Assembly (NCBI RefSeq): GCF_016717175.1
Contig: NZ_JADKFZ010000004.1
Length of the DNA: 64,000 nt
Reading direction: 5' to 3' (one strand)
Origin: Nannocystis sp.
GTDB taxonomy: Bacteria > Myxococcota_A > Polyangia > Nannocystales > Nannocystaceae
The notes below the pieces were generated by a model. The model searched no databases and was not told where the DNA came from. It was given only the letters and a program-made list of their open reading frames with translations. The translations under genes and the position numbers were made by a program. Positions 1,470 through 60,199 of this stretch are shown here, piece after piece; the first letter of the stretch is position 1, and every line of letters starts with the position of its first letter.

Positions 1470-4400
1470 ATGAAGCCGTCGGACGCAGATCTCGGCGATA
1501 CGACGGGTGTGCCCGAGTCGCCGGGCGTGAAGGCCACGCGATCGTCGGGGCCGCCGCTGCACACCTCGGGCGCGTCGATCGATCCGCTGGCGATGACCGG
1601 CACGAGCTCGGGTCAGGCGACGGCGCGGGTGGGTCGGCCGGGCTTCGACGTCGACGCCGAGCTGGCGCGCGCGCAGCTCGAGACGCGGCTCTACGGGGCC
1701 GGGCGCGGCGAGGGCGGGCCGCGGATCGGGAAGTATCAGATCCTCGATCACCTCGGGCGCGGCGGGATGGGCTCGGTGTACACGGTCTACAACCCGGACC
1801 TCGATCGCAAGAGCGTGATCAAGCTGGTCCGGCCCGATCGATCGAGCCCGGACAGCCGGCGGCGGCTGCTGCGGGAGGCCCGACTGACGGCGACGCTGTC
1901 GCATCCGAACGTGGTCCAGATCCACGACTCGGGCGAGTACCTCGACGAGATCTACGTGGTGATGGAGTTCATCGCCGGGGTCGACCTCGACGCGTGGCGG
2001 CGGCAAGGGCCGCACGCGTGGCCGGAGGTGCTGGCGGTGTATCGCCAGGCGGGGCTCGGGCTGGCGGCCGCGCACGCGCAGGGGGTCGTGCACCGCGACT
2101 TCACGCCGCGCAACGCGATGCTCGGCGAGGATGGGCGGGTGCGGGTCCTCGACTTCGGGCTGGCGCACGCGCGGCGCGATGCGGGCGAGGTGATCGACGG
2201 TGCGCCGGGGTCTGGCGGACCACGGCCCGCTGCGGTGGCGGTGAGCGACGCGATGTCGGAGCCGGGGTCGGGGGACAGCTTGACGGCGACGGGGGCGATC
2301 GTCGGCACGCCGCGCTACATGTCGCCCGAGCAGTTGCGGAGCGTGCCGACCGACGGGCGCAGCGATCAGTTCAGCTTCTGCGTCGCGCTGTGGGAGGCGC
2401 TGCTCGGGCACCTGCCGTTCATGGGCGCCGATCTGTTCGAGTACAACGAGGCGGCGCTGGCCGGGGACATCCGGCCGCCGGAGGATCTGCGGGGGGTGCC
2501 GCGGCGGGTGTTGAAGGCGCTGCGGCGCGGGCTGGCGCCGCGGGCGGACGATCGCTTCGCGGACATGCACGCGCTGCTGGCGGAGCTCGACGTGCGGCCG
2601 CTGCGGCCGTGGATCGGGCTCGCGGGGGTGGCGGGGGCGCTGGCGCTGGTCGGGCTGTGGTTCCTCGCCCTGCCGGCGACGCCAGTGTCGCCGCGCGAGC
2701 AGTGTGCGAGCGAGTTGGCGGACGAGCTGCCGGTGACGTGGTCGGCGCTGCCCGGGCCGATCGCGGGGCGACTGGGGGAGTTCGCGGACCGCTGGCGGGC
2801 GGCGCGGGTCGAGCTGTGCGCGGCGGGTGTGGCGGGCGGGCTGCCGGCGCCGGCGCTGCGGCGCGGGCTGCGTTGCCTGGAGAAGCAGCGGGCGGTGTTC
2901 GTGGGGCTGGTCGATCGGGTGACGGCCGGCGATGCGCTCGAGCTCGACCTCGGGGCGCTGCCGGACAGCGATCGGGTGGCGGCGTGCACGGATCCGCTGC
3001 GCCTCGCCGACGGGGCCGCGCCGCCGTCGCCCGCGGCGCGCGAGGCGGTGAGCCGGGTCGAGGCGGACCTGGCCCGCGCCGAGACGGCGCTGATCCTCGG
3101 GCGCTACGCCGAGAGTGAGGCGATCGCCGCGAGCGCGGTGCGGCGGGTCCGGGAGATCGGTCATGCGCCGACGCTGGCGGCGGCGCTGTACCAGCTGGCC
3201 CGCGCCGAGACCTACGGGCCGAACGCGGACGCGGCCGAGGCGACGTTGCGCGAGGCGGCGGGGCTGGCCGAGCGGCACGACCTGCACGACCTCGCGGCGG
3301 ACATCTATCTGCGCCTGGTGCGGGTGGCGATGGCCCACGGGCAGCGCAGCGCCGACGGCAGCGTGTGGTTCGCGGTCCTCGGCTACAAGCTGGCGCGGCT
3401 CGACGAGCGTCGCGGTCGGCGCTGGGCGGAGGGGCTCGAGTACCTCGGGGCGATCGCCCTCGACGCGCGTGAGCTGGCGACCGCCGAGAGTCTGTTCGAG
3501 CGGGGCGCGGCGGCCGAGGAGGGGGCCGGGCCGCTGCGTCGCGGCCTGGTCGAGCTGCGGCTCGGGCGGGTGCAGCGGCTGCGTGGCGATGCGGCGGGGG
3601 CGGCCGGGCGCTTCGCGCGGGGGCTCGCGCTGGCGGAGGAGGAGCTCGGGCCGGAGCACCCGCAGCTGGTGCAGTTCCTGGTCAACCTCGGCGAGGTGCA
3701 GCTCGAGCTGCGCGAGCTGGAGGCGGCGGAGGCGACGATCGGGCGCGGGCTGGCGATCTCTACGGGCGGGGCGGGCGGGGCGGGGCGCGGCGTGTACCGG
3801 CCGCAGCTGCTGCTCGCGGCGGCGCAGGTCGCCGAGCTGCGGGGCGACATGGCGGGCGCGGGGGCGCTGGCGCGGCAGGCCCGGGCCTTGCTGCGCGACC
3901 GGGCCCTGCCGGCCGATGTCCGCAGCTACCGCGGGGCGGTGCTCGACCTGGTGGCCCGGGCCGCGTTCGCGGCGGGCGACGCGACGGCGGCGCTGGACGC
4001 CTACAGCGAGCTGCTCGCGGTGCCGGAGGGGCACCTGTCCCGAGAGGCAGCTCGCTTGCTGATCGCGTACCGCAACGCGGCCGGGCTGGCGGTGACGCGC
4101 GAGCAGCCGGCGCTGGCGCTGCGCTTCGTGGCCGCGGCGGTGCCCCTGCTGGGCGAGCCGGGGCTGGCGGAGGCGGCCGGCGAGGCGCTGCGGGTCGATC
4201 TGGCGGCCCGCGAGGGGGAGGCCTTGCTGGCCCTGGGGCGGCCGGCGGCGGCGGTCCTGGTCGCCGAGCGCGCGCTCGAGCGCTGGGACCCGCAGGGCCG
4301 GCGGGAGGACGCCTCCACCGCCGACCTGCACCTGCTGTGCTTCGAGGCGCTGAAGCAGCGGGCGCCGACGCAGGCGCTGCCGCACGCGCGGGCGGCCCTG

Positions 4401-8796: not shown

Positions 8797-9330
8797 ATGG
8801 CGAGGTCGGTGCATATTCTGTCGTTGCTGGACGACAGCGACATCGAGTGGTTGGTGCAGGTCGGGCTGCGCCTGAGCGTGCCGCCGGTGGCTCCGCTGGT
8901 GGAGGAGGGGCTGCGCACGCCGTTTCTCTACATCATTCTTTCGGGGGCCTTTCTCGTGACGCAGAGCGCGACGGGGGCGACGGAGCGGTCGCTGTCGGTG
9001 ATCCAGCGCGGGGAGCTGGTCGGGGAGCTGTCGTATCTCGACGCGCGGCCGCCGTCGGCGACGGTGCGGGCGGCCCGGGCCTCGCAGGTGCTGGCGGTGG
9101 CGCGCTCGGAGGTCGCGCGCAGGCTGCAGACGGACGTCGGGTTCGCGGCCCGCTTCTACCGGGCGCTGGGGATCACGGTGGCGATGCGGCTGCGGGCCCT
9201 GACGCGCGGCGAGCCGGAGGACGAGCCGGACCTCGAGCAGCTCGGGCTGGTGACGGTGGACGAGCGGCGCTTCGAGGCGATCATGCGCCGGCTGGAGGGG
9301 CTCCCAGGCGACGCAGACGCAGCGAGTTGA
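8797..9330 (+). CDS. cyclic-nucleotide-binding domain protein (no DNA-binding domain)
   Basis: [11 protein letters not shown]...RSATVRA is a cNMP-binding beta-barrel signature. 177 aa with no C-terminal HTH. Confidence 0.8.
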
Positions 9331-11818
9331 GCACGACGGTGAGGCTGCTGAGGGCCATCGCCAGGGCGGCGAGGGCGGGGTGGAGCGCGCGCAGGAAGCC
9401 CGGGGCGGCGGCGATCGGGTAGAGGGCGCCGGCGGCCACCGGGATCAGGACGAGGTTGTAGATCGAGGCCCACAGCAGGTTCTGGCGGACCACGGCGAGG
9501 GTGCGGCGCGACAGCTCCAGGGCCTCGGGCAGGCCGCGGAGGTCGCTGCGCATGAGGGTGAGGTCGGCGGCGTGGATCGCGACCTCGGCGCCGCTGCCCA
9601 TGGCGACGCCGAGGTCGGCCTGGGCCAGGGCGGGGCCGTCGTTGATGCCGTCGCCGACCATGCCGACCGGGCCGTCCCGCTGGAGCGTGACGATCGCGGC
9701 GGCCTTGTCGGCCGGGAGCACGCCGGCGATCACGTCGGCGGCGGGGATGCCGGCCTGGGCGGCGATGGCGATGGCGACCTGGCGGTGGTCGCCGGTCAGC
9801 ATGAGCACGCGCAGGCCGGCGCGGCGCAGGGTGGCGACGGCCTCGGCGGCCTCGGGGCGCAGGGCGTCGGCCAGGGCGAGCAGGCCGAGCAGGGCGCCGT
9901 CGCGGGCCAGCCAGACGAGGGTCTGCGGGGCCTGCAGGGCGGCGGCGGGGAGGGCGAGGAGGGCGGGTGTCGCTTGGGACAGGTGGGTGGGCGCGGGTGA
10001 GGGTGTCTCTTGGGACAGGTCGATGGTGGGCGCGGGGGAGGGTGGTTCTTGGGGCAGGTCGGTGGTGGATGTCCCGGCGGACAGGTCGGGTGTCGCTTGG
10101 GACAGGTGGGTGGCGGCTGTCCCGGGGGACAGGTTTGATGTCTCTTGGGACAGGTTGATCGTGGCGCTGGCGGTGGCTGTCCCGGCGGACAGGTCGGCGG
10201 CGAGGGCGGTGAGGGCGGTGGTGTCGACGTGGTTGCTGGTGAGCCAGCGTTCGCTGCCGATGAGGAGGTCGTGGCCGTCGACGCGGGTGCGCAGGCCGTG
10301 GCCGCCGACGGCGCGGAGGCTGTCGCTGGCGGGGAGCGCCTGGCCGGCGTCGCGGGCGGCGCTGACGATCGCGCGGGCGAGCGGGTGCTCGCTGCGCTGC
10401 TCGGCGGCGGCGGCGAGGCGGAGGAGCTCGCGCGGGTCGACGCCGGGGGCGGGCGCGAGGGCGCTGAGCGTGGGGCGGCCGCGGGTGAGGGTGCCGGTCT
10501 TGTCGAGGACGAGGGTGCGCAGGGCCTGGGCTCGCTCGAGCGCGGCCATGTTCTTGAACAGGACGCCGCGGCGGGCGGCGGCGCCGGTGCCGACGACGAT
10601 CGCGGTCGGGGTGGCGAGGCCGAGGGCGCAGGGGCAGGCGATCACGAGGACGGCGACGGCGCGCAGGAGGGCCGCGCCGGCGCCCTGGTCGGCGAGCAGC
10701 CACCACAGCGTGAAGGTGAGGCCGGCGAGGGCGAGGACGACGGGGACGAACACGGCGGCGACGCGGTCGACCAGGCGCTGCACGGGGGCCTTGCTGGCCT
10801 GGGCGGCGCGGACGAGGCGGACGATCTGGGCCAGGGCCGTGGCTGCGCCGACGCGGGTGGCCTCGATCTCGAGGGCGCCGTCGCCGTTGACGGTGGCGCC
10901 GGTGACGGGGTCGCCGGTGGTCTTGCCGACGGGGCGGCTCTCGCCGGTCAGCATGCTCTCGTCGACCTCGGAGGCGCCGCTGCGGACGACGCCGTCGACC
11001 GGGATCGCGGCGCCAGGGGCGACCAACACGGTGTCGCGGACCCGGACCTCTGCGGCGGGGATCTCGAGCTCGTGGCCGTCGCGGCGGACCCGGGCGGTGG
11101 CGGGGCGGAGCGCGAGCAGGGCCCGGATCGCGGCGCCGGCCTGGCCGCGGGCGCGGGTCTCGAGCAGGCGGCCGACGGCGACGAGGGTGACGATCGCGGC
11201 GGCGGTCTCGAAGTGGACGTGGTGGCCGAGAGCGTGGCTGCCGAGGGACTCGGCGACGACCACCGGGACGCTGGCGAGGAAGGCCACGCCGGCGCCGAGG
11301 CTGATCAGGACGTCCATGGTGGCGGCGCGGGCCTTGAGCGCGTGCCAGGCCCCGCGCAGGTGCGGCGCGCCGGTGTAGGCGAGGACCGGCAGGGCGAGCG
11401 CCAGCATGAGCCACAGGAGCCACGGGGCGGCCGTCCAGGCGCCGAGCAGGTCGAAGTCGCGGCCCATGCCGAGGACCATCAGCGGGGCGGTGCAGGCGAT
11501 CCCGACGAGGACGCGGCGGCGCTGACTGGCGAGCTCGGCGGCGCGGGCCAGCAGCTCGGCATCGTCGCCGCCCTCGCTGCCCGCGATCACGCTGTAGCCG
11601 GCGGCCTCGACGGCGGCGACCAGCTCACCGCGAGTGACTGTGCCGGGGGTCGCCAGGTGCACGCGGGCGGTCTCACTGGCGAAGTTGACGGCGGCCGCGG
11701 CGACGCCGGGGACGCTGGTGAGCGCGCGTTCGACGGTGTTCGCACAGTTGGCGCAGCGCAGCCCGGCGATCGCCAGCTCGAACTCGGGGTCGTCGGCGGC
11801 GGGCACGGAGCCGAGCAT
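9281..11818 (-). CDS. copA: heavy-metal (Cu+-type) P1B-type ATPase with N-terminal HMA domain
   Basis: [19 protein letters not shown], transmembrane CPC (IACPCALG), [15 protein letters not shown]. Carries an in-frame repeat insertion at 9960-10200. Confidence 0.8.
9960..10200. repeat. in-frame tandem repeat array (~24-27 bp units carrying GGGACAGGT/ACCTGTCCC) inside the P-type ATPase nucleotide-binding region
   Basis: gggtgtcgcttgggacaggtgggtgg...gggtgtctcttgggacaggtcgatgg... encodes (DLSAGT/HLSQAT/NLSQET...) repeats between LLIGSERWL and the [10 protein letters not shown] segment. Confidence 0.8.
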
Positions 11819-11898
11819 ATCGCCGAGTCGGCGGCGGGGTGAGCGCGGCGTGTGAAATTGCTGGACGTGCTGGTGGGGTCGCGGCGATCGTCACGCCG

Positions 11899-19142: not shown

Positions 19143-19190
19143 GGTGGGACGATAACCTGGGTGGGAGCGCGGGCGGTGGGGCACGGGCCG

Positions 19191-19272
19191 GGGTGGGGGG
19201 GGGGGGGGGGGGGGGGGGCGGGGGGGGGGGGCGGGGGGGGGGGGGGGCCCGGGGGGGGGGGGGGGGGGGGGT
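19191..19272. repeat. ~80-nt near-pure poly-G (poly-C on the minus strand) homopolymeric tract
   Basis: gggtgggggg gggggggggg ggggggggcg gggggggggg gcgggggggg gggggggccc ggggggggggggggggggggg read directly. Lies 50-130 nt upstream of the minus-strand lipoprotein start at 19142. Confidence 0.95.
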
Positions 19273-19618
19273 GGGGCCCTGGGGCCCGGGGGCCCGGGGG
19301 CGCCGCCCCGCGCCGCGGGGGGCCCTCCGGCGCGCGACGCCTCCGCTAAAGGCAAGGCGGTCGGCGTCGCCGAGAGCCGGCCCCACCCCGGCCCTGAATG
19401 GGGTGACGTCGCTGCGCGGTATGTAGCAGCGAATGCGACGGGTTGCACTCGATATGTCGCATTGCTGTGAGCCTCGAAGCGCTCACCGTTCAATGCACTC
19501 AAATGGGTCCGGGGCAGTCCTGCGGAGCGTCCGTGTCGGGCGCGCACATTGCTGTCGGGCCCATGTCGCCGCAACAATCGTCGTGGCTGCAGAGGATGCA
19601 ACTCCATTCGAAGCAGGC

Positions 19619-19832
19619 CGTGATGCGTCCAATGTGAATGAGTTGTGGTCGCCGTGTGGCACCTTTCGTTCCTGTCCGAAGAGGCAGGTTGCGAGTCTCA
19701 GGCCGGGGCGGGCCTCGGCGACGCCGTGATGCATGCAATGTGAATGAGTTGTGGTCGCCGTGTGGCACCTTTCGTTCCTGTCCGAAGAGGCAGGTTACGA
19801 GTCTCAGGGCCGGGGCGGGTCCGGCCTCGGCA
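19619..19832. repeat. 107-bp tandem duplication (2 copies) of a lower-GC element
   Basis: gtgatgcgtccaatgtgaatgagttgtggtcgccgtgtggcacctttcgttcctgtccgaagaggcaggttgcgagtctcaggccggggcggg... repeats from 19726 with ~6 mismatches. Copy 2 ends in the hairpin GGCCGGggcgggtCCGGCC. Confidence 0.9.
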
Positions 19833-20013: not shown

Positions 20014-20170
20014 CCCCGGTCCGTGCCACGATACTCGCGGAGTCCTGCTGTGATAGCGAGGATACTCGCGGAGTCCTGCTGTGATAGCCCGGTCCGTGCC
20101 ACGATACTCGCGGAGTCCTGCTGTGATAGGCCGGTCCGTGCCTTGATATTCGCGGACCTGCGATAGCGAG
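20014..20170. repeat. 41-bp tandem repeat (~3.5 copies), lower-GC
   Basis: cccggtccgtgccacgatactcgcggagtcctgctgtgatag repeated, last copy degenerate. Immediately 3' of the cbiX stop on the minus strand. Confidence 0.85.
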
Positions 20171-21902: not shown

Positions 21903-23975
21903 ATGTGTGGGGCCGTGCGTGGCGCGGAGCGACTGCTGTGGGGTTCGTTGTGGCTGCTCGGCTGCGGGGCGGGCGAGCGGGGGCCGTCGGCCAGCCCGTC
22001 GCCGCCGCCGGCGAGCGGGGCGGTCGGTGGGCAGGAGCGCAGCGCGGGGCCGCCGGCTGCGGGTGCGGGGACCGGTGGTGGGATCGCGGGTGTTGCGGGT
22101 CTCGGTGGTGGGTCGAGCGCTGCGGGGCCGGGCGTGGTGGCGCAAGCGGTCGCGGCGAGGCCGGGGCCGGCGGACGCGGGCAGCTGCCCGGCGCAGGACG
22201 ATCCGGGCTACGGGCTGCTGGTGGTGCCGCAGCGGGCGGTGGTCGGGCAGCAGCTGACGATCCTGGCGGCGACGCTCGACGACGAGGCGGCGATCGCCGT
22301 GCGCGTCGACGCCGGGCCGCGGGTGCAGGAGGCGGGGGAGGGTGTCCCTGCGGACATGTCCTTTCGGACTGGTGTGCCGGCGGCGACGATCGTCCGCCTG
22401 ACGCCGACGCAGGCCGGCGAGCTGACGGTGGTCGCCGGGCGCGGCGGGGTCGGGCACGCGTGCTTGCGGGTCAAGGTGCGGGCCGCGGCGGCGCGCGAGG
22501 CCCCGCCGGCGGCGCCCGGGAATCAGGCGTGGCCGAGCGTGCGCGGGTGGGACGCGGGCGAGGAGGCGTTGTACTCGGCGTGGCTGCGCGAGCTGTTCCA
22601 CGCCGAGCTCGGGGCCGACCTGGCGACCACGGCGCTCGACCAGATCACGAGCGACGCGGGGCGCAACCTGCTGCATGGGTCGCTCGGCTGGGACGAGGAC
22701 GCGAAGCACCCGACCGGGCTGGCGATGCGGCCGGACTGCGCCGACGTGCCGTACTTCTTGCGGGCGTACTACGCGTGGAAGCGCGGGCTGCCCTTCGTGT
22801 TCCGCGGCTGCTCGCGCGGGAGCCCGGGCAAGGCGCCGCGCTGCGGTGAGGGGACGGACAACGCGGCGGCGCAGGACGGCACCGGGCCGCAGCCGGGGCA
22901 GCTCGGGGCGGTGCAGTACTACCTGCGGCGGACGCTGGCGTGGGGGGTGCACACGGGCAACGGGCGGGTGGCGATGACGGACGAGCGCAGCGACCTGTAC
23001 CCGGTCCGCCTCGATCGCCGGGCGCTGCGGCCGGGCACGGTGTACGCGGATCCCTACGGGCATATTTTGGTGCTGGTGGAGCTGTTCGAAGGGACAGGTG
23101 GTCGACCGGGGGTGCTGTACGCGGTCGACGGTCAGCCGGACGGGAGCATCACGCGCAAGCGGTTCTGGGAGGGCAACTTCCTGTGGAACCCGGACCCGGG
23201 GCTCGGCGGATCGGGGTTCAAGAACTTTCGTCCGGTGGTGGTGAGGGACGGGGTGGCGGCGCAGATGACCGACGCGGAGATCGCCGGGGCGCCGGGCTAC
23301 GGGGATGGATCGCCGGCGCAGGCCGAGCTGGCGGCGCCGGCCTTTTATGACGCGATGGAGCGCATCATCACGCCGGGGACCCGCGACGCGCTGCTGGCCC
23401 AGGAGGAGGCCGTGGCGGCGCTGTTCGAGCAGGCCCGCGTGCGCGTGACCTCGGTGGCCAACGGCGACGACTACTTTAAAAAGAACCCGGGCGCGACGGT
23501 GGCGATGCCGGAGGGCTTCAAGGTGTTCGAGACGACGGGGGCGTGGGAGTCGTACTCGACGCCGGCACGCGACCTGCGGCTGCTGATCGCGATGGACGTG
23601 GTGCGCGGCTTCTCGGACAAGGTGCGGCGCCAGCCGGCGGTGTTCGGGGTGACCGAGGGGCCGGGGCTGGACGAGTTGATCGTGAAGCTCGAGCAGGCGC
23701 GCGGGGAGCTGCTGGCCGCGCCGCGCTTTCGCTTCGAGTACCGGCGCAGCGACGGGTCGACGTGGGGGCTGACGCTCGCGGATCTGATGACGCGGGCGAG
23801 CGCGCTCGAGGCGGCCTACAACCCGAACGACTGCCCGGAGCTGCGCTGGGGCGCGAAGCCGGGGAGCGACGAGGCGAGGACCTGCGGGCGCACGGCGCCG
23901 GCGGAGCAGCAGGCGAAGATGCAGCGGTACCGGAGCTGGTTCGCGGAGCGCAAGCGTCCGGCGCGGGGGACCTGA
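21903..23975 (+). CDS. large secreted lipoprotein, hypothetical
   Basis: MCGAVRGAERLLWGSLWLLGCGAGE lipobox, Gly/Ala-rich linker, then a ~550-aa globular region with balanced composition (WGVHTGNGRVAMTDERSDLYPVRLD...). No family recognised. The upstream part of track ORF 21270..23975 is low-complexity. Confidence 0.7.
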   Translation: MCGAVRGAERLLWGSLWLLGCGAGERGPSASPSPPPASGAVGGQERSAGPPAAGAGTGGGIAGVAGLGGGSSAAGPGVVAQAVAARPGPADAGSCPAQDDPGYGLLVVPQRAVVGQQLTILAATLDDEAAIAVRVDAGPRVQEAGEGVPADMSFRTGVPAATIVRLTPTQAGELTVVAGRGGVGHACLRVKVRAAAAREAPPAAPGNQAWPSVRGWDAGEEALYSAWLRELFHAELGADLATTALDQITSDAGRNLLHGSLGWDEDAKHPTGLAMRPDCADVPYFLRAYYAWKRGLPFVFRGCSRGSPGKAPRCGEGTDNAAAQDGTGPQPGQLGAVQYYLRRTLAWGVHTGNGRVAMTDERSDLYPVRLDRRALRPGTVYADPYGHILVLVELFEGTGGRPGVLYAVDGQPDGSITRKRFWEGNFLWNPDPGLGGSGFKNFRPVVVRDGVAAQMTDAEIAGAPGYGDGSPAQAELAAPAFYDAMERIITPGTRDALLAQEEAVAALFEQARVRVTSVANGDDYFKKNPGATVAMPEGFKVFETTGAWESYSTPARDLRLLIAMDVVRGFSDKVRRQPAVFGVTEGPGLDELIVKLEQARGELLAAPRFRFEYRRSDGSTWGLTLADLMTRASALEAAYNPNDCPELRWGAKPGSDEARTCGRTAPAEQQAKMQRYRSWFAERKRPARGT

Positions 23976-25589: not shown

Positions 25590-26451
25590 GTGCGCCGCCT
25601 CGCCTGTCTCTGGCTCGCCTCCTCGCTGATCGCGGTGGGCGGGCCGGCGCGCCCGCTGCACGCGGCGCCGGTCAGCGAGCGCGCGGCCGATGTGCCGCTC
25701 GCGGTCGAGGGACCTGCGCCAAAGGACAGGTCGGGAGAGGCTGGCGCGGAGGACAGGTCGGCTGGCTCCGGGGTCGGGGTCAGCTGGCCCGGAGGACAGG
25801 TCGGGAGAGGCTGGCCCGGAGGACAGGTCGGGGTCGGCTGGCCCGGAGGACAGGTCGGCTGGCTCTGGGGACAGGTCGACGCCGCGGTCGGCGGCCGAGG
25901 GGATGCCCGCGGCGCCGCGGGTGCCGGCGCCGACGGCTGCGATCAAGGATGGGGGCCCAGAGCTGGTCACGGTGGCGGTCGGGCTCGGGCCCTCGGCGCC
26001 GGGCTCGAAGGCGGAGACGGCGGTGGTCGACGCGCTCGAGCGCGCCGCCCGGGCCTCGCAGGCGCCGCCGACGCTGGTTCGCCGCCTGCGGGCCGGGGCG
26101 GGCGAGGGGCGGGCGATCTGCCGCGAGCGTCGCGACGACCTGGTGCTGCTGCTCGAGTACATGCCCGATCGACCCGAGCCGGTGTTGGTGCCCCGGGACT
26201 GCCGCCTCGACCGTGAGCTGGCGCTCCGGGGGAAGGAGGCCGCAGGTGAGCCGGCCCTCATCGGCGTACTGTGGGAGGAACATCGGGCGCTCGTCCGCGG
26301 CGGGGCCCGCGAGCGCAAGGTGAGGATCAGCCGCAAGGTGAAGACGGGCCTCATCGCTGGCGGGGCGATCGTGGTCGTCGGGCTGGCGATCGTGCTGGTT
26401 GTGGTCAACAGCTTGCGCCGCGAGACGGTCGTGCTCACAGTGGGGCCATGA
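25590..26451 (+). pseudogene. secreted repeat protein with C-terminal TM helix; apparent 1-nt frameshift in a G4 run within the repeat array
   Basis: Signal (V)RRLACLWLASSLIAVGGPARPLHA in the frame starting 25590. The downstream part (PEDRSGEAGPEDRSGSAGPEDRSAGS...VLVPRDCRLDRE...IAGGAIVVVGLAIVLVVV) is in the next frame (track ORF 25690..26451). The frames join if tccGGGGtcgggg loses one G. The stop overlaps the next gene's ATG (ATGA). Confidence 0.5.
25720..25875. repeat. 27-bp tandem repeat array with AGGACAGGTCG core (5-6 copies)
   Basis: ...ggaggacaggtcgggagaggctggcccggaggacaggtcggggtcggctggcccggaggacaggtcggctggctctggggacaggtcgac... Units are multiples of 3 except for one 43-bp unit. Confidence 0.85.
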
Positions 26452-45746: not shown

Positions 45747-47597
45747 TCACGCATCCTCCGCGGGGGCCTCGTTGGCGGCGGAGCTGTCCTCCGGGACAGC
45801 CGCGGACGCGTGCTCGGCGGAGCTGTCCTCCGGGACAGCCGCGGACGCGTGCTCGGCGGAGCTGTCCTCCGGGACAGCCGCGCGCGCGCGCTCGACGACG
45901 CCGCGCTCCCACAGCTGCTCGTCGATCGCGCGCATGAGGGCCGCGGTGCTGCGGCGCTCGTTGGCGCTGATGAAGTAGGTGTGGCGGTCGGCGTCGGCGC
46001 GGCGCTGGTTGAGCTCGTCGGGACCCAGGCGGTCGATCTTGTTGTAGACCCACAGGCGGGGCACGGCGCCGGCACCGATCTCGCCGAGGATCGCCTCGAC
46101 GGTGGCGCGCTGCTGGTCCTGGTCGGGGTCGCTGGCGTCGACGACGACGAGCAGGAGGTCGGCCTCGGCGACCTCCTCGAGGGTGGCGGAGAAGGCCTGG
46201 ACGAGCGCGGGGGGGAGGTCGCGGATGAAGCCGACGGTGTCGAGGAGGACGACCTCGTAGTCCTTGGGGAAGCGGATCCTGCGGACGCTGGGGTCGAGGG
46301 TGGCGAACAGCTTGTCCTCGGCGACGACGGCGCTGTCGGTGACGGTGTTGAGCAGGCTGCTCTTGCCGGCGTTGGTGTAGCCGACGATCGCGACCACGGG
46401 GACGCCGGTGCGCCGGCGCAGGGCTCGACGCTGGTCGCGGCGCTGCTTGAGCGCGAGCAGGCGGCGCTCGAGGTCGTGGATGCGCTCCTTGGCGCGGCGG
46501 CGGTCGATCTCGAGTTTGGTCTCGCCGGGGCCGCGACCACCGATGCCGCCGGCGAGCCGCGACATGGCGGTGCCGTGGCCGATCATCCGCGGCAGGAGGT
46601 AGCGCAGCTGGGCCAGCTCGACCTGCAGCTTGCCGTCGGCCGAGGTGGCGTGCTGGGCGAAGATGTCGAGGATGAGGGTGGTGCGGTCGATGACCTTGAG
46701 GTCGGTGCGCTCGCCGATCTCGCGGGCCTGCGAGGGGGTGAGGTCGGGGTCGCAGATCAGGAGCTCGACGTCCTGGGCGAGGGCCCGCACGAGCACGTCG
46801 CGCAGCTTGCCCTGGCCGAAGAAGGTGCGCGGGTCGGGGCCGGGGCGGCGCTGGGTGGCGAGGTCGACTAAGTGGAGGCCGTCGGTGCGGCACAGCTCGC
46901 GCAGCTCCTGCTCGCGGGCGTGCAGCTCGGGGCCCTCGCCCTGGTGGATCATGAGGGCCATGGCGCGGGTGCCCTGCGACTCGGCGCGCGCGCCCGCGGT
47001 GGCGGCGACGAGGCCGGCCTCGAGGTCGCGGATGAAGCCGAGGAAGTCGGAGGGCATGTCCGCGGCGGGCCGCATGCCGGTGGTGTGGCCGGGGTCGTCG
47101 TCGTCGCGGGCGAGCACGCCGAGCGGGACGCGCGGGAAGCCGCGCACGACGAAGATGTCCTTTGAGCCAGGTTGTGGCGGGGCCAGGCTGGCGAGGTCGA
47201 TCTGGACGCCGGCGGGGCCGCGGTGGATCGCGGCGAGGAGGTCGAGGCGCAGCTTGGCGAGGTCGGCGAGCTCCTCGCGGGTCGGCGGGTCGGGGACCAG
47301 GTGGGTGAGGACCAGCCGGACGCCGCGCAGGCGGCCGCCCTGGCCGCGCACGCGGGTGAACTCCGGGAGGGCGAGGCTGTGGGCGTCGCCGAGGATGACG
47401 CGCTGGACGCGGCCGCGGCGGTCGATGAAGAGGCCGAGCTGGCGGTTGAGCTGGTGCGAGAGCTCGAGCAGGTCGCGCGCGAGCACGGCCGAGATGACGC
47501 TCGTCGGCGGGACCTGGCGCGCGCCGAGCCGCTGCAGCGCGCGGGCCTGGCTGCTCTTGAGGTTCGCCGTGTCGCCGTGGACGATCGGGTCGCTCAC
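45747..47597 (-). CDS. hflX: GTPase HflX with C-terminal repeat extension
   Basis: G-domain VAIVGYTNAGKSSLLN...DTVGF...NKID. N-terminal HflX domain. GTG start overlaps the upstream gene's stop. C-terminal (AAVPEDSSAEHAS)x3 encoded by the 45778-45895 repeat. Confidence 0.85.
   Translation of the reverse strand: MSDPIVHGDTANLKSSQARALQRLGARQVPPTSVISAVLARDLLELSHQLNRQLGLFIDRRGRVQRVILGDAHSLALPEFTRVRGQGGRLRGVRLVLTHLVPDPPTREELADLAKLRLDLLAAIHRGPAGVQIDLASLAPPQPGSKDIFVVRGFPRVPLGVLARDDDDPGHTTGMRPAADMPSDFLGFIRDLEAGLVAATAGARAESQGTRAMALMIHQGEGPELHAREQELRELCRTDGLHLVDLATQRRPGPDPRTFFGQGKLRDVLVRALAQDVELLICDPDLTPSQAREIGERTDLKVIDRTTLILDIFAQHATSADGKLQVELAQLRYLLPRMIGHGTAMSRLAGGIGGRGPGETKLEIDRRRAKERIHDLERRLLALKQRRDQRRALRRRTGVPVVAIVGYTNAGKSSLLNTVTDSAVVAEDKLFATLDPSVRRIRFPKDYEVVLLDTVGFIRDLPPALVQAFSATLEEVAEADLLLVVVDASDPDQDQQRATVEAILGEIGAGAVPRLWVYNKIDRLGPDELNQRRADADRHTYFISANERRSTAALMRAIDEQLWERGVVERARAAVPEDSSAEHASAAVPEDSSAEHASAAVPEDSSAANEAPAEDA
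45778..45895. repeat. 39-bp in-frame tandem repeat x3 at the 3' end of hflX, containing the near-palindrome CTGTCCTCCGGGACAG
   Basis: ggcggagctgtcctccgggacagccgcggacgcgtgctc repeated three times. Confidence 0.85.
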
Positions 47598-49560: not shown

Positions 49561-50020
49561 GGTTATCCGACCTGCCGGTGCTGTGACCAGAGGCGCGCCG
49601 AAAGTCGAGGCGGGGTGGGGCGCGGGGGCGGGTCGTGGGGTGCAGGCCGGGCTGTCGGGGCGGGTCCTGGGCCAGGAGCAATTGCTGGCCAGGCGCGGCG
49701 TTGCTGGCCATGGCGGGGCGCGGGGCGATTTAGCGCATGATGAACGGTCGCGGGTGCGGGAGTTGCCGGGCCGGGGGCCGCGTCGGATCGGGCCGGGACC
49801 GGAGCCAGACCTCCGGACCTCGCCGCGTCGACGAGCCGGGCGCGGCGGGTGTCGGGGCCGGGCCTTTTGGACATGTTCCTTTGGACATGTCCCTTGGCGC
49901 AGGCCGTGGCGCGTGGCGACGCGCGTGTGTCCAGAGCGGCGGGCCGACGCGCGGCGGCGTGGCTTGACCGGGGTCGGCGGTCTGGCTACGAAGGATCGGT
50001 TTTTGGCGGGAGGTGCTGCG

Positions 50021-54824: not shown

Positions 54825-54839
<15 letters not shown>

Positions 54840-54905
54840 GGCTGTCCGAGGGGACAGGTTGCGGCCGGCGTGCTTGATGTGAGGCTGTCCGAGCGGACAG
54901 GTCAG
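54825..54905. repeat. ~45-bp tandem duplication (2 copies) carrying GTCCGAG(G/C)GGACAGGT, between convergent genes
   Basis: cctgatgtgaggctgtccgaggggacaggttgcggccggcgtgcttgatgtgaggctgtccgagcggacaggtcagcgg read directly. Confidence 0.7.
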
Positions 54906-55804
54906 CGGCGACGACGGAGCAGGAGGGCGAGCGGGAGCAGGAGGGCGAGCGAGGCGGGCTCGCCGGGGCTGCCGTTGCAGCCGCAGCCGCTGCTGCGCTC
55001 GGGGTCGGTGTTGATGCAGTCGCAGTCGCTGCAGTCGGGCGGGCGCAGGTCGAGGCCCGAGGCCTGCTCGAGCCAGCACAGGCCGCCGATCGGCGCGGCG
55101 TAGAAGCCGCCCTTGCCGCAGGTGTAGCCGCGCGAGGTGACGCCGGCGAGCACGTACTCGCCGCTGGCGAGCTTGGCGAAGGCGGGGCCGCCGGAGTCGC
55201 CCTGGCACGAGTCGAGGCCCATGCCGCCGGCCTGGAACTCGAGGCCGGAGCCGCTGAACTTGGTGATCGGGACGTCGACCTGGCGCTTGATGCCGGTGAT
55301 GTCGCCCTCGTTGAGGCCGTAGCCGACGACGGTGACCTTGTTGTCGACGGCCATGAGCTCGTCCCACTCGTCCTGGTCGGCGATCGGGCGCGGGAACTCG
55401 AGGATGTCGGACTGCGGCTTGGTGAGCACGAGGAAGCCGTAGTCGTGGATGTCCTCCTTGCAGCTCTTCGCGCCGCAGAACTCGGGGTCGAAGCCGATGG
55501 CGGCGACCTTGTAGACCGGGACCGGGAAGTTGACGTCGTCGCCGCGGCGGACGGTGATGCTGCTGAGCGAGGGCTCGGACTCGAGGCAGTGGGCGGCGGT
55601 GAGGACGATGGTCGGGCTGACGAGGGTGCCGGTGCACAGCGAGCTGCCGAGGGTGATGGCGACGACCGCCGGCCAGGCGCCCGGCTCGACGACCTGGCCG
55701 CCGTAGATCGGGACGGGCGGCGGTGGGACGGCGGTGAGGGTGCCCGTGGGGGTGGCGAGGGCGATCACGGCGGCGAGCCCGGAGAGCAGCATGGCGGCCA
55801 GCAT
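54902..55804 (-). CDS. trypsin-like (S1 family) serine protease with MYXO-CTERM tail
   Basis: Signal peptide, TAAHC (His), GDSGGP (Ser). C-terminal GCGCNGSPGEPASLALLLPLALLLRRRR. Confidence 0.8.
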   Translation of the reverse strand: MLAAMLLSGLAAVIALATPTGTLTAVPPPPVPIYGGQVVEPGAWPAVVAITLGSSLCTGTLVSPTIVLTAAHCLESEPSLSSITVRRGDDVNFPVPVYKVAAIGFDPEFCGAKSCKEDIHDYGFLVLTKPQSDILEFPRPIADQDEWDELMAVDNKVTVVGYGLNEGDITGIKRQVDVPITKFSGSGLEFQAGGMGLDSCQGDSGGPAFAKLASGEYVLAGVTSRGYTCGKGGFYAAPIGGLCWLEQASGLDLRPPDCSDCDCINTDPERSSGCGCNGSPGEPASLALLLPLALLLRRRR

Positions 55805-55849: not shown

Positions 55850-57232
55850 TCACAGGCTGGCGGCGGGGAGGTCGACGATCGGGCCGAGGTCGAGGTCGGC
55901 GAGCGGGGCGTCGACGAGGGACGGGTCGCCGACGACGACGATCTGGAGGTCGTCGAGGGCGAAGTGGCTGCGCAGCGAGCGGGTGACCGCGGCGGCGTCG
56001 CAGGGTGGGGGGCGAGCGTTCGGGAGCGCGTGCCAGTGGGCGCGGGCGAGGCTCTGCAGCTGGTCGGCGTCGGTCTGGCGGCGGTACAGCTGCTCCAGGG
56101 CCTCGTGGACGCAGACGCGGGCGACGAGCCCGGGAGCGAGGCCCTGGCGGCGCAGGCGGGCGAGGGTGTCGGCGATGACGCCGAGGCTGCGGCCGACGGC
56201 GGCGGCGTCGACCTGGGTGACGATGCGGAGCAGGCCCGGGCCGCGGGCGGGCTCGCGGCTCACTTCGACGCCGTAGGTCGCGGCCATGTCGTCGCGCAGG
56301 CGCTCGCCGAGGGCGCTCTGCACGATGTCGGCGGCGACCTGGGTGGCGAGGTCGTCGTCGGCGATCGCGGCGGCGCGGCCGAGCACGACGACGGCCTGGG
56401 CGAGGCCCGGGCGGGCGATGCGGTGGATGGCGCGGCGCGGGGCGGGCGCGAGGGCGGGGAGCCCCTGCGGGTCGGCGGGGCCGCTCCAGCCGGCGAGTCC
56501 GGGGGCGGCGGCGGCGACGAGGGCCTGCGGGTCGGCGTCGCCGGCGACGACGATCGTCAGCGCGGCGGGGCCGAGGCTGCGCTGGCCGTGCTCGCGGACC
56601 TGCTCCAAGGACCATGTCCCGGAGGACAGCTCGCTGGTCGCGTGGGGGTGGCCGGGCGGGAGGCTGACGCGGCGCAGGCCGGCGAGCGCGAGGGTTGTTG
56701 GGTCGTCGCGGGCGCGGGCCCGGGCGGCGGCGAGTTCGGCGGTGATGTCGGCCAACTCGGCGGCCAGCTCGGCGGCGTCGCCGGGCTGGTCGAGCGGGCG
56801 GCGGATCGCAGCGAGGAGGGCGCGCAGCGCCGCGGGGGCGTGCTCGGCGGGGACCTCGGTGGCGAGCAGGGCGCCCGAGCTGCTGATGTGCAGCTGCGGC
56901 GCGCCGCCGAGGTCGGCGAGGGCGGCGGCGAGGCTGCCCTCGCGCTCGTCGTGGCCGCGCAGGAGGCCGAGCAGGAGGGCGCTGAGGCCCGGGCGATCGG
57001 GCGGGTCGCTGGCGTGGCCGAGGCGGAGCGACAGGCCGAGGGCGACGCTGCGCGGGCCGGCGCCGGGGCGCGTGATCGGGGTGAAGTGCAGCGGCACGTC
57101 GGCGACGACGAGGCGACGGGTGGCGGGCGCGGGCGGGAGCGCGGGCGCGGGCGGGGCCGGCGGCGGCGTGCGCCGCCAGACCGAGCAGGCGAGGGTGGCG
57201 GCGGCGAGGGTGAGGACGAGGGCGCGAGACAT
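55850..57232 (-). CDS. M16-family (insulinase-like) peptidase, non-catalytic/beta-type subunit
   Basis: Signal MSRALVLTLAAATLAC. M16 fold-like length and conserved C-domain features. No HxxEH motif. Confidence 0.75.
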   Translation of the reverse strand: MSRALVLTLAAATLACSVWRRTPPPAPPAPALPPAPATRRLVVADVPLHFTPITRPGAGPRSVALGLSLRLGHASDPPDRPGLSALLLGLLRGHDEREGSLAAALADLGGAPQLHISSSGALLATEVPAEHAPAALRALLAAIRRPLDQPGDAAELAAELADITAELAAARARARDDPTTLALAGLRRVSLPPGHPHATSELSSGTWSLEQVREHGQRSLGPAALTIVVAGDADPQALVAAAAPGLAGWSGPADPQGLPALAPAPRRAIHRIARPGLAQAVVVLGRAAAIADDDLATQVAADIVQSALGERLRDDMAATYGVEVSREPARGPGLLRIVTQVDAAAVGRSLGVIADTLARLRRQGLAPGLVARVCVHEALEQLYRRQTDADQLQSLARAHWHALPNARPPPCDAAAVTRSLRSHFALDDLQIVVVGDPSLVDAPLADLDLGPIVDLPAASL

Positions 57233-57382
57233 GGCGCGGGGGACAGGTGCGAGGAGACAGGTGCGAAGGGACAGGTTGGAAGGGACAGGTGGGATGGCCG
57301 CGGGGACAGGTGCGAAGGGACAGGTGGGGATGGCCGAAGGGACAGGTGGGAGGGGACCGGTGGGGATGGCCGAAGGGACAGC
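57233..57382. repeat. intergenic tandem array of ~14-25-bp units built on GGGACAGGTG (about 9 copies)
   Basis: ggggacaggtgcgaggagacaggtgcgaagggacaggttggaagggacaggtgggatggccgcggggacaggtgcgaagggacaggtggggatggccgaagggacaggtgggaggggaccggtggggatggccgaagggacagctcaggtgg. Lies directly upstream of the ATG at 57232, between the two M16 genes. Confidence 0.9.
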
Positions 57383-58723
57383 TCAGGTGGGTGGGGTGGC
57401 GAGGATGATGGCGCGGCGCGGGGCGGCGAGGAGGGTCCTGGCGGCGGCGGCGACGTCGGCGGGGGTGACGGCGAGCCACTGGGCGAGGTCGTGCTCGAGG
57501 CGGTCGGGGTCGCCGAATGCGGCGGCGTAGCCAGACAGGAGGCTGGCGCGGGTGAGCAGGTCCTGGGGGGCGCGGCGCAGGCGCTGGGCGAGGCGCAGGC
57601 GGGCGCGGCGGAGCTCGGGCTCGGCGAGCTCGCCGGCGGCGACGCGGGCGAGCACGCCGTCGATCGCGGCGAGCAGGCGGGCCCCGTCGCTGCCGGGCGG
57701 GCCGATCAGCTCGATGACGGCGACCGACTGCTGCGGCTGGCTGAACTGCTCGGCGCCCAGGGCGGCGACGAGGGCGGCGTCGGGGCCGGCGAGGCGGCGG
57801 AAGGCGCCGGCGTGGAGGGCCGCGAACAGGACGTCGAGGGCGGCGTCGCCGTCGGCGTGCAGGCCCGGGCTGGCCCAGCCGCACAGGGCGCTCGGCGGGC
57901 CGCCGGTGGCGACGCGCTCGTGCTGCGGGCCGTCGGCGGGGAGCGGCGGGAGCGGGCGCGGGCGCCTGTCCCGGGGGACAGGTGAGCCGGGGATGCTGGC
58001 GAAGTAGCGGTCGATCTGGGCGCGGGTGTCTTGCGGGAGGTCGCCGACGATCGTGAGGGTGGCGTTGCTCGGGGTGTAGTGGGCGGCGAGGAAGGCGTCG
58101 ACGTCGGCGGGGCGGATCGCGGCGATCGCCGCGTGCGGGCCGATGACGGTGTGGTGGTAGGGGTGCTCGGGCGGGAAGAGGCGGGCGAACAGGCGCTCGA
58201 TGCGGGCGCCGCGGGGGTCGGTCTCGCGTCGCTGGCGGCGCTCCTGGGCGACGATCGCCTGCACCGAGGCGAGGGTGTGGGCGCCGGTGCTGCCGCGCAG
58301 GTAGCCCATGCGGTCGGCCTCGAGCCACAGCACGGTGGCGAGGCCGGCCTGCGGGGCGAGGGTGTAGTACTCGCTGCTGTGGAGGTCGGTCTCGGCGTTG
58401 TCGTGGTGGATGAAGGCGCGGGCGCGGGCGCGTTCGCGGGCCTCGGCGTCGATGTGGCGCGAGCCCGCGAACATGAGGTGCTCGACGACGTGGGCGAGGC
58501 CGCGGCGCTGCGGCGGATCGTCGACGGCGCCGACGTGGTAGCGCAGGTGCACGGCGACGAGCGGGAGCCGGGCGTCGCGGCGGAGGATGACCTCGAGGCC
58601 GTTGGCGAGGTGGTAGTGCGCGTCGCCGGGGGCGCGGGCGGAGCTCGGGGTCGCGGGGGCGAGGTCCGGTGCCGCGGGCGCGAGGGCCAGCCAGGCGGGC
58701 AGCAGGGCGGCGAGGATGCGCAC
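57383..58723 (-). CDS. M16-family zinc peptidase (catalytic, HxxEH)
   Basis: Signal (V)RILAALLPAWLALAPAAP. Inverted zinc-binding motif HVVEHLMF...E. GTG start at 58721-58723. The upstream extension of track ORF 57383..60163 is low-complexity. Confidence 0.8.
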   Translation of the reverse strand: MRILAALLPAWLALAPAAPDLAPATPSSARAPGDAHYHLANGLEVILRRDARLPLVAVHLRYHVGAVDDPPQRRGLAHVVEHLMFAGSRHIDAEARERARARAFIHHDNAETDLHSSEYYTLAPQAGLATVLWLEADRMGYLRGSTGAHTLASVQAIVAQERRQRRETDPRGARIERLFARLFPPEHPYHHTVIGPHAAIAAIRPADVDAFLAAHYTPSNATLTIVGDLPQDTRAQIDRYFASIPGSPVPRDRRPRPLPPLPADGPQHERVATGGPPSALCGWASPGLHADGDAALDVLFAALHAGAFRRLAGPDAALVAALGAEQFSQPQQSVAVIELIGPPGSDGARLLAAIDGVLARVAAGELAEPELRRARLRLAQRLRRAPQDLLTRASLLSGYAAAFGDPDRLEHDLAQWLAVTPADVAAAARTLLAAPRRAIILATPPT

Positions 58724-58942
58724 GAATTGACCATGGGGCGACGACGTCGCGGGGGTCAAGGGCAGGGCCGGTCGCGGTCCGATCGGGTGGGCGCGAAGCG
58801 GGGCGCGCAGGGACGGCGGAGCGTGAAAGGCGGCGCACACTCGGGCCGGGGCGGGCCTGGGATCCGTACGGGGCGGGCGGCGCCGCGGTCGTGAAGGCCG
58901 GCGGAGAAATCTGGTAATGCTCGGGCCGCCGCGGAGCCTCGC

Positions 58943-60199
58943 TTGTCCACCTCCTCGACTCCTCCCTCCGGCGATCGCCAGACCCCGCCCCAGGTGGTGC
59001 GGCCGGACCTGCCGCCGCGCTTCGAGCTCGACCACGACTTCACGGAGGCGCTGGCCCACATCGCGGCGATCCGGACCCGCCGCAAGCTCGAGCGCGACCC
59101 GGTGTACCGCGAGATCAAGCCGCAGCTCGAGCGGGTGCTGCGGGGCTTCGAGTGGGACCTCGAGCCGACGCTCGGGACCTCGCTGACGGCGCGGCGGCCG
59201 GGCGTGGTGCGGGTGGCGGCGTGGAACGTCGAGCGAGGCAAGCGCTTCGCCGGGCTGCGGCACGCGCTGACCCACGACCCGGTGCTGCGCGAGGCGGACG
59301 TGCTGCTGCTGACCGAGGTCGACATCGGCATGGGTCGCTCGCAAAACCTCAACGTGCCGCGCGAGCTGGCGGCGGCGCTGGGCATGGGCTACGTGTTCGC
59401 CAACTATCACATCGTGCTGGCGGAGGGCGACCGCGGCGAGCGCGGGCACGGGATCCCGAACACCAAGGCGATGCACGGCTGCGCCCTGCTGACGCGCTTC
59501 CCGGTGCTGCGCTTCGAGGCGGTCGACCTGGCGGAGCGCAAGGACAAGTTCCACGCGACCGAGAAGCGCATCGGCAACAAGCGCACGCTGCTGTGCGAGC
59601 TGCTGCTGCCGGACGGGCCGCTGTCGCTGGCGCTGGTCCACCTCGATCCGTTCACGGGGCCGCGTCACCGGGCCAACCAGCTGCGCCAGATCGTGGCCCG
59701 GATGCGCCGCTTCGGCGGCGAGCGGATGCTGCTGGGCGGCGACCTCAACACCAACACCTACGACCTCGGCAGCGGCCGCGGCATGGTCTACAACATGCTC
59801 TACAAGCTGACGCGCTTCGGCTTCGAGGGCACGGTGGAGCAGTACATGAAGCCGGAGGAGATCCTCGAGCGCAAGGTGTTCGACGCGCTGCGAGCGGGCG
59901 GGCTGGCGATCGAGGGCTTCAACGACTTCGCCCGCGGGACCATTTACTACGACGTGTACGACCCGGAGATGGCGCGCAAGGCCCTCGACTACCTGCCGAA
60001 GCCGGTGTGTCGGTGGTTGATGGGCTGGCTCGAGCGCCGGCTCGAGCCGTGGGACGGCCGGGTGCCGCTGCGGGTCGACTGGTTCGCGGGCGCCGGGCTG
60101 CGACCGCGCTCGCCGCAGGTGATCGAGCGGCCGATGGTCGACGGGCAGATCATCAGCGACCACAACCCGATCCTCGTCGACCTCGAGCTGGCGAACTAG
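58943..60199 (+). CDS. endonuclease/exonuclease/phosphatase (EEP) family protein
   Basis: VAAWNVERG...LLLTEVD...GGDLNTN...SDHNPILVDL are EEP catalytic motifs. Start uncertain (TTG 58943 or a downstream GTG). Confidence 0.7.
   Translation: MSTSSTPPSGDRQTPPQVVRPDLPPRFELDHDFTEALAHIAAIRTRRKLERDPVYREIKPQLERVLRGFEWDLEPTLGTSLTARRPGVVRVAAWNVERGKRFAGLRHALTHDPVLREADVLLLTEVDIGMGRSQNLNVPRELAAALGMGYVFANYHIVLAEGDRGERGHGIPNTKAMHGCALLTRFPVLRFEAVDLAERKDKFHATEKRIGNKRTLLCELLLPDGPLSLALVHLDPFTGPRHRANQLRQIVARMRRFGGERMLLGGDLNTNTYDLGSGRGMVYNMLYKLTRFGFEGTVEQYMKPEEILERKVFDALRAGGLAIEGFNDFARGTIYYDVYDPEMARKALDYLPKPVCRWLMGWLERRLEPWDGRVPLRVDWFAGAGLRPRSPQVIERPMVDGQIISDHNPILVDLELAN

Follow-up and report, generated by a model that had tools for sequence, protein, structure and literature searches.

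What occupies the 150 bp between two adjacent M16 peptidase genes in a 64,000-nt stretch of myxobacterial DNA (hereafter the window) is a tandem array of short repeats, and the question arises whether this tract is a promoter, an element acting on the RNA, or the product of a repeat expanded inside an operon. The original prediction that the array fills the whole gap proved exact: it extends (57,233–57,382, minus strand) from the TCA at 57,383–57,385, the stop codon of the upstream minus-strand gene, to the CAT at 57,230–57,232, the ATG of the downstream minus-strand gene, with Pfam matches to PF00675/PF05193 on both sides. The predicted number of about nine irregular units was also confirmed, the units being 14, 21 or 22 nt long and the last one cut to 8 nt.

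By parsing of the sequence and with Tandem Repeats Finder, the plus strand was resolved into a 7-nt lead GGCGCGG and nine units, adding up to 150 nt. The units start with GGGACAGGTG or a one-mismatch variant thereof and read GGGACAGGTGCGAG, GAGACAGGTGCGAA, and GGGACAGGTTGGAA (units 1 to 3, 14 nt each), GGGACAGGTGGGATGGCCGCG (unit 4, 21 nt), GGGACAGGTGCGAA (unit 5, 14 nt), GGGACAGGTGGGGATGGCCGAA (unit 6, 22 nt), GGGACAGGTGGGAG (unit 7, 14 nt), GGGACCGGTGGGGATGGCCGAA (unit 8, 22 nt), and the cut-off GGGACAGC (unit 9, 8 nt). In sense direction the array is TGA-GCTGTCCC...CACCTGTCCC-CCGCGCC-ATG, in which each unit is composed of the core CACCTGTCCC, 4 nt, and an optional GCCATCC(C). The TGA of the upstream gene adjoins the first, shortened core, and the heptamer CCGCGCC (57,233–57,239, minus strand) adjoins the ATG, so that the last core lies 7 nt from the start codon, as it does in the relatives L132, L002, and L128 described below. 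Comparison of the units located the GCCATCC module in the 21-nt long unit at 57,282–57,302; further long units on the minus strand are situated at 57,317–57,338 and 57,353–57,374. Matches to this module are found in L138, within the units, and in L003, where the spacer is present as a single copy (GCCATCTCCCAC). Tandem Repeats Finder reported periods of 14 (3.7 copies, 84% matches, score 76) and 36, corresponding to 14+22 (3.3 copies, 87% matches, score 187). If at most one mismatch is allowed, the 10-mer core occurs 31 times in the window, 8 of these copies falling within the array, versus 7.16 ± 2.37 times in shuffled sequences (0 of 100 shuffles reached 31). The array contains half-sites only, in direct orientation and without hairpins. 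The sense strand of the 150 bp (55% C, 15% G, 22% T, 8% A; C/G ratio 3.6) has no ATG, GTG, or TTG and no stop codon, and the 14- and 22-nt unit lengths disrupt every reading frame.

The upstream gene, M16-A (57,383–58,723, minus strand, with a GTG start at 58,723 according to orthologue alignment), encodes an active M16 peptidase subunit, for which both M16 domains (Pfam) and the HxxEH zinc motif (HVVEH) were found. M16-B (55,850–57,232, minus strand) encodes an inactive M16 subunit with the inactive domain only and a lipoprotein-type signal peptide (MSRALVLTLAAATLAC...). M16-B begins with ATGTCTCG in the window and with ATGTCCCG in several orthologues; the latter start has TGTCCC in common with the core located 14 nt upstream. 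M16-B shows no Shine-Dalgarno sequence. The third gene (54,902–55,804, minus strand) encodes a trypsin-like serine protease, and its TGA is directly followed by CCTGTCC-GCTC-GGACAG. With exact-protein look-ups and two homology searches, a conserved string was recovered from related genome and metagenome contigs (labelled L followed by a number). It consists of a divergent Exo/endo/phosphatase gene, M16-A, M16-B, and the trypsin-like gene; after these come convergent genes that encode a small protein and an adenylosuccinate lyase. A metagenome scan with M16-B yielded one C-terminal fragment, which does not include the junction. Since the nearest named relatives of M16-A belong to Nannocystis species (50–51% identity), the source organism appears to be an uncultured Nannocystaceae-like myxobacterium. 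In case of L001, the last 228 bp (2861–3088) are not alignable with the window; the break is close to window positions 54,916–54,951 and lies near an 18-nt repeat (two copies) in the C-terminal part of the trypsin-like gene, which may be another variable repeat.

The junction between M16-A and M16-B is short in several relatives. N. exedens has no repeats in this region, and in the gene calls of one assembly the two genes overlap by 4 nt (ATGA). The gap is 9 nt in L130 and 29 nt in L003 and L004, where a single core is present (TGA-CCTGTCCC-AAGA-GCCATCTCCCAC-GCGCC-ATG). L128 and L129 carry 72 nt, a duplicated junction with a 13-codon mini-ORF. In this mini-ORF (MSRFAFTAALVAP followed by a stop codon; positions 2058–2129 of L128, present also in L129), the M16-B start is fused with the end of M16-A, and a second TGA-CCTGTCCC-GAGAGCC-ATG follows. 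Overlaps and short gaps of this kind are a signature of co-transcription and translational coupling. Due to the co-orientation of the genes, their conserved order, and the overlapping or near-abutting junctions in the outgroups, we infer that M16-A and M16-B are co-transcribed and were ancestrally translationally coupled. The conserved string of M16-A, M16-B, and the trypsin-like gene, together with these overlaps and short gaps, speaks against the initial view of the tract as a promoter region, and we propose to annotate it as an intercistronic tandem repeat instead. A read-through of the TGA, which would fuse M16-A and M16-B, was rejected as well: the 150 bp are in frame and free of stops, but gaps of 82, 29, and 203 bp in relatives are not multiples of three, and M16-B has its own signal peptide.

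Further relatives carry expanded junctions of varying construction. L132 and L133 contain six 14-nt units (82 bp), L002 about eleven 16/21-nt units with AAAMGC spacers (195 bp), and L138 27-nt units. In case of L134 and L135, four 58-nt units (203 bp) each include the last 29 nt of M16-A and its TGA. L005 has four units of 27 nt that share the frame of the downstream gene and start from an ATG overlapping the upstream TGA (ATGA). Gene callers mis-handle the junction, placing the start of the downstream gene at the ATGA overlap in one N. exedens assembly as well as in L005. Taken over the relatives, unit counts of 1, 4, 6, 9, and about 11 are found at the junction, with unit lengths between 14 and 58 nt.

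A fixed copy number across strains had been named beforehand, together with a transcription start upstream of the array, as evidence against a variable promoter spacer; such a fixed number was not found, as the array differs in three of the four close pairs compared. The exception is the pair of the window and L001, which are 98.57% identical over 2860 bp without gaps and whose arrays differ by one SNP. The flanks of the window and of L131, L132, and L133 are about 96% identical, with 150 bp versus 82 bp between the genes, and L003 and L134 (98.6–98.9% identity) have one versus four copies. L002 and L138 are 99.15% identical over 2696 bp; this identity ends 11 nt beyond the stop codon, from where their arrays consist of wholly different, non-alignable units; each of these two states comes from one assembly, and metagenome assemblies can mis-size tandem repeats. 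An assembly artefact was ruled out as general cause, since most states recur in independent assemblies (two each for window/L001, L003/L004, L132/L133, L134/L135, and L128/L129) and L001, an independent wastewater assembly, has the same 150-bp array with one SNP. The M16 junction thus changes faster than its flanks and could be a useful marker for strain typing.

Within a lineage the spacers between cores are uniform, namely TTCG in the window, AAAMGC in L002, and AAAG-ACCATCCCAAC in L138, and they differ between lineages. This pattern reads as the signature of local and independent amplification. The module GCCATC(N)CCCAC is probably ancestral because it occurs in the long units of the window as well as in L003 (single-copy spacer) and L138 (array units). 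The core CCTGTCCC at the junction is perfectly conserved across lineages whose M16-B proteins are only 53–66% identical, and in four lineages the last core is located exactly 7 nt from the ATG. Purely neutral slippage predicts neither of these two features. They hint at selection on the core, possibly by way of an RNA- or DNA-binding factor or of access to the start site.

The core is not confined to the M16 junction. In sense direction, CACCTGTCCC is the 5' arm of a mini-palindrome CTGTCC-N4-GGACAG with a stem of 6–7 bp and a loop of 4 nt. With up to one mismatch, the palindrome (CTGTCCNNNNGGACAG) is found 22 times in the 64-kb window versus 0.12 expected, and every related contig tested, among them N. 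exedens and two MAG contigs of Nannocystis, carries it at a density of 1.4–10 per 10 kb. Copies often adjoin the TGA at real gene ends, as observed for the trypsin-like gene (window, L003, L005, and L134), M16-A, and a STAS-domain gene (L002). Two hairpin copies (TGA-GG-CTGTCC-N4-GGACAGGT) are located between convergent genes at 54,837–54,904, strand unspecified; the pair at 54,837 and 54,880 arose through duplication of 43 nt, stop codon included, and a gene end with its hairpin is tandemly duplicated also in L002 (1040/1096, 56 nt). Within M16-A, a full palindromic copy (CGCCTGTCCC-GG-GGGACAGGTG, 57,963–57,984) is read as SPVPRDRR, and in L005 this site is expanded in frame with core copies every 33 nt.

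Five core arrays occur in the 64 kb, of which the one at the M16 junction is the only one without the 3' arm. An in-frame core array (9,950–10,200, minus strand) in a copper P-type ATPase (ORF 9,281–11,890, minus strand) encodes an insert of approximately 80 residues with DLS/HLS/NLS repeats (DLSAGTA / NLSQETS / HLSQATP) between the N-domain and the P-domain. The insert is missing from CopA 3J09, where query residues 527–629 align with chain residues 493–513. At 45,776–45,894 (minus strand), three 39-nt units in exact register, carrying CTGTCC-TCCG-GGACAG hairpins, form the in-frame C-terminal tail of an HflX-type GTPase. A 27-nt array (GGAGGACAGGTCGG...CTGGCCC) is situated at 25,724–25,877 (plus strand) in the context of the 5' end of a plus-strand gene, and here the G-rich strand is the sense strand. 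A signal-peptide ORF (from 25,590) and the ORF of the downstream domain (25,690–26,451) are in different frames across this array, which may be due to a frameshift or to a mis-sized repeat. Core and palindrome are thus dispersed, yet the array units vary from locus to locus in the window. Due to the in-frame arrays and the duplications of gene ends with hairpins, the genome seems to multiply core-containing segments wherever they are located.

A genome-collection scan for three CCTGTCCC cores spaced 4–28 nt apart returned matches from many phyla; those listed were mostly unrelated tandem repeats, and among them full hairpin-unit arrays were present in at least two Nannocystis MAG contigs (L046 and L028). 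In Rfam, the locus and the whole window gave two tRNAs only and no family on the array. Paper searches returned nothing relevant on the motif itself or on REP-like or comparable repeats in myxobacteria. Intergenic GGACATGTCC palindromes and TTTGGACATGT(T/C)CC direct repeats at 22,343–22,370 and 49,866–49,895 may represent a sister family of the TGTCC/GGACA core. Other repeats of the window are of different type. A minus-strand ORF, which starts at 19,143 with a lipoprotein-like signal (MHRLLLLGALLLAC), is preceded at a distance of 47 nt by an approximately 85-nt, almost pure G tract (poly-C in sense direction) at 19,190–19,276; this tract may be either a genuine homopolymer belonging to a promoter region or a poly-G artefact of sequencing or assembly. 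At 19,617–19,819 and 20,030–20,156, a 106-nt repeat (1.9 copies, 95% matches) and 31- and 42-nt repeats are found in non-coding DNA of lower G+C content, and the 106-nt unit carries TGGCACCTTTCGTTCC, which resembles a sigma-54 promoter.

The strand on which the core appears deserves caution. The G+C content of the window is about 74%, and the GC skew is positive (0.10–0.28) over all 64 kb, whatever the strand of the genes. GGACAGGT was counted 29 times on the plus and 3 times on the minus strand, or about 12:3 by independent locus in a rough tally. A skew of approximately 0.18 alone predicts about 3:1. As the tally by locus is near this expectation and the array at 25,724–25,877 has a G-rich sense strand, the orientation is no evidence for a function in the sense of the transcript, and a replication- or transcript-oriented function was discarded as explanation of the bias.

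From these observations, we consider it probable that the tract is a slippage-generated, MIRU-like intercistronic minisatellite (VNTR) within a single operon of M16-A, M16-B, and the trypsin-like gene. The anatomy of the array, the dispersed family, the synteny of the operon, the variability between strains, and the composition and predicted structure of the RNA on which this explanation builds are direct observations. The seed would be one copy of the lineage-specific mini-palindrome, in sense direction ACCTGTCC-N4-GGACAG, which commonly stands directly after TGA stops, in an ancestral spacer of about 15–29 nt (TGA-CCTGTCCC-N4-GCCATCNCCCAC-GCGCC-ATG). Short direct repeats in or near the seed, e.g., the TGTCCC of the core and of the ATGTCCCG start 14 nt away, could then give rise to slipped-strand mispairing or unequal exchange, and this TGTCCC may offer a ready microhomology for the 14-nt period. 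Slippage of this kind would generate the 14-, 22-, and 36-nt periodicities of the window and, independently, those of 16/21, 27, and 58 nt in sister lineages. On the operon mRNA, the array would form a 150-nt linker that is ribosome-free, C-rich, G-poor, and almost without structure, and which replaces the tight coupling seen in relatives. Rho loads on C-rich, G-poor, unstructured, and untranslated RNA. Considering this behaviour and that of translational coupling, the most likely outcome would be a length-dependent reduction or decoupling of the expression of M16-B and the protease, through lost coupling and through Rho loading on naked RNA. Like co-transcription, the slippage mechanism and any effect on expression are what we infer from the arrangement; the array may be close to neutral, and an internal promoter or a processing site within it is conceivable. 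The subunits of an M16 pair must assemble 1:1, and the junctions of the relatives (0, 1, 4, 6, 9, and about 11 units) provide a natural series for the effect of spacer length on the ratio of the two subunits.

An unlikely alternative is a selected RNA element, in which the array serves as rut-like site or as ribosome standby platform that sets the ratio of M16-A to M16-B and the protease, repeat number being a heritable rheostat. Composition and fold agree well with it. The sense RNA of 150 nt is predicted to fold with −17.2 kcal/mol, compared to −66 ± 13 kcal/mol for 150-nt background windows, which places it among the least-structured 0.3%, and with 190 nt the value is −22.2 kcal/mol (z = +0.8 versus shuffles). 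An untranslated stretch of 150 nt with 55% C and 15% G has the sequence properties expected of a rut site, i.e., at least 70–80 nt of C-rich, G-poor, and unstructured RNA, as is established for such sites. The arrays of other lineages are likewise C-rich and G-poor, every expanded lineage having retained this composition although the units differ, and the conservation of the core and of its 7-nt distance to the ATG as well as the variation in length between close strains would also suit a selected rheostat. On the other hand, this composition results automatically from multiplying a C-rich core, minus-strand transcripts are C-rich in general given the plus-strand GC skew of +0.1 to +0.28, and core arrays occur in frame inside proteins as well, where such an RNA role is not needed.

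The reading as promoter of M16-B, with the array as phase-variable spacer or as multimerised regulator sites, is very unlikely. Its best arguments are that copy number and structure of the array differ between close relatives, that the core is conserved, and that the genes encode proteases of secreted or lipoprotein type, which may often be under contingency control. The array is, however, intercistronic in a conserved co-oriented string whose junction overlaps or nearly abuts in relatives, and two strains 1.4% apart carry arrays identical but for one SNP. Classical phase-variable promoters have homogeneous tracts of 1–7 nt units. In contrast to the very short and homogeneous units expected of a contingency locus, those of the window are 14, 21, or 22 nt long with 84–87% matches, and over the lineages the units are long, imperfect, and lineage-specific (14–58 nt); variation in copy number among close strains, a second mark of such loci, was observed in three of four pairs. 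Of the proposed copy-number-dependent promoter spacer, the variability in copy number therefore stands (82 versus 150 bp, one versus four copies), whereas the promoter spacer itself finds no support, the tract being intercistronic and its units imperfect and 14–22 nt long. A dedicated operator, and with it the idea of multimerised regulator binding sites, fits poorly with a core that recurs both at stop codons and, in frame, within unrelated genes. Between 56,800 and 59,200, neither strand yielded a sigma-70-like promoter or an intrinsic terminator, which is weak evidence at 74% G+C, the scan being uninformative for atypical high-G+C promoters. Promoter-like hexamers are lacking in the array, and its sense strand has no TA and no TTG; this is weak evidence too, since 40% of the 150-mers of the genome are without TA.

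Equally in the range of the very improbable is a REP/BIME- or MITE-like cluster, the units of which would stem from transposition rather than local slippage, e.g., through an enzyme of RAYT type that acts on hairpins. The family is indeed a short palindrome dispersed over the ends of genes as well as between convergent ones, and the full hairpin-unit arrays of L046 and L028 among the matches listed are in agreement with mobility. The M16 array, however, consists of direct half-sites without hairpins, many copies of the family are intragenic, and the scanned ORFs of the window yielded neither a transposase nor a RAYT domain. Spacers uniform within and different between lineages speak against transposition as well, and units that include the last 29 nt of the upstream gene indicate local duplication. 

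A function of the plus (antisense) strand, either as template-strand G-quadruplex blocking RNA polymerase or as GGA-rich, CsrB-like sponge RNA, has next to no probability: one canonical G-quadruplex motif (57,339–57,365), nine GGGACAGG units with GGA, and the position of the G-rich repeats of Xanthomonas and Nostoc, immediately before ORFs and on their non-coding strand (PMC4692102), can be cited in its favour, but 45 such motifs on the plus strand of the window versus 1 on the minus strand make the single one of the array unremarkable and rule it out as a special feature, and the sponge of CsrB/RsmZ type was rejected because no plus-strand promoter or terminator (56,800–59,200) and no Rfam match at the locus were found, the plus strand is predicted to fold barely more stably than shuffled sequences (z −2.1), and the GGA motifs lie outside the predicted loops.

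Returning to the intercistronic minisatellite, it is tempting to speculate on a wider role of its seed. A so far undescribed family of mini-palindromes (ACCTGTCC-N4-GGACAG) that abuts stop codons across Nannocystaceae-like Myxococcota might seed hypervariable arrays, which would act as expression rheostats between cistrons, via Rho or lost translational coupling, and as variable linkers within genes (CopA, HflX, M16-A), perhaps with a dedicated enzyme for its spread or maintenance. In its entirety, this scenario is doubtful. The repeat family documented here for an uncultured myxobacterial lineage marks gene ends, enters coding sequence while keeping the frame, and is a recurrent nucleus of local tandem duplications.

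Among known systems, Rickettsia palindromic elements and in-frame repeats (PMC3184786) resemble the family members that are in frame in CopA, M16-A, and the HflX tail. They are single insertions of 100–150 bp, however, whereas tandem units of 21–48 nt built on an 8-nt core are found here. The heptameric GGGNATC and GGGGA(C/T)T repeats of Xanthomonas and Nostoc occur preferentially as four units, which matches G-quadruplex formation; they are not tied to surface genes only, and their function is not established (Rehm et al. 2015, PMC4692102). As in the present case, they are short G-rich tandem repeats distributed over the genome, mainly between co-oriented ORFs, with the G-rich strand being non-coding and the repeat located within 50 bp upstream of an ORF or overlapping a stop codon, and related genomes carry repeats of highly variable length and sequence at the corresponding intergenic site. 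The array differs from them by its palindrome-derived units of 14–22 nt and by a G-quadruplex potential that does not exceed that of the rest of the plus strand.

Similar to the REP/BIME elements of proteobacteria, the parent family is a short, G+C-rich, over-represented palindrome at the 3' ends of genes and inside operons, sometimes in clusters. Its stem of only 6–7 bp with a 4-nt loop sets it apart, many copies are intragenic and in frame and not extragenic, and no RAYT gene occurs among the window ORFs scanned. Stem-loops are a property of the dispersed family and not of the M16 array, which lacks the 3' arm and clusters direct repeats instead of alternating orientations.

MIRU-VNTRs of Mycobacterium are direct repeats in operon spacers that vary between strains and are transcribed polycistronically (Supply et al. 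1997, reviewed in PMC3184786). The array agrees with them in consisting of direct tandem repeats in an operon spacer in the same orientation as the flanking genes, in the scattering of its core and palindrome over a high-G+C genome (22 palindromes and five arrays in 64 kb), in its absence from the homologous site of relatives, and in its differing copy number between strains; moreover, the in-frame units of L005 and the mini-ORF of L128 touch the neighbouring stop and start codons as MIRUs do. In contrast, its units measure 14–22 nt (36 nt for the super-unit) and not the 40–100 nt of MIRUs, the array of the window has neither ORF nor start codon, the common part is only a core of 8–10 nt that belongs to a palindrome, and length and sequence of the units differ between sister lineages. 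By analogy, the array appears to work like the MIRU, REP/BIME, and GGGNATC systems while being a member of none of them.
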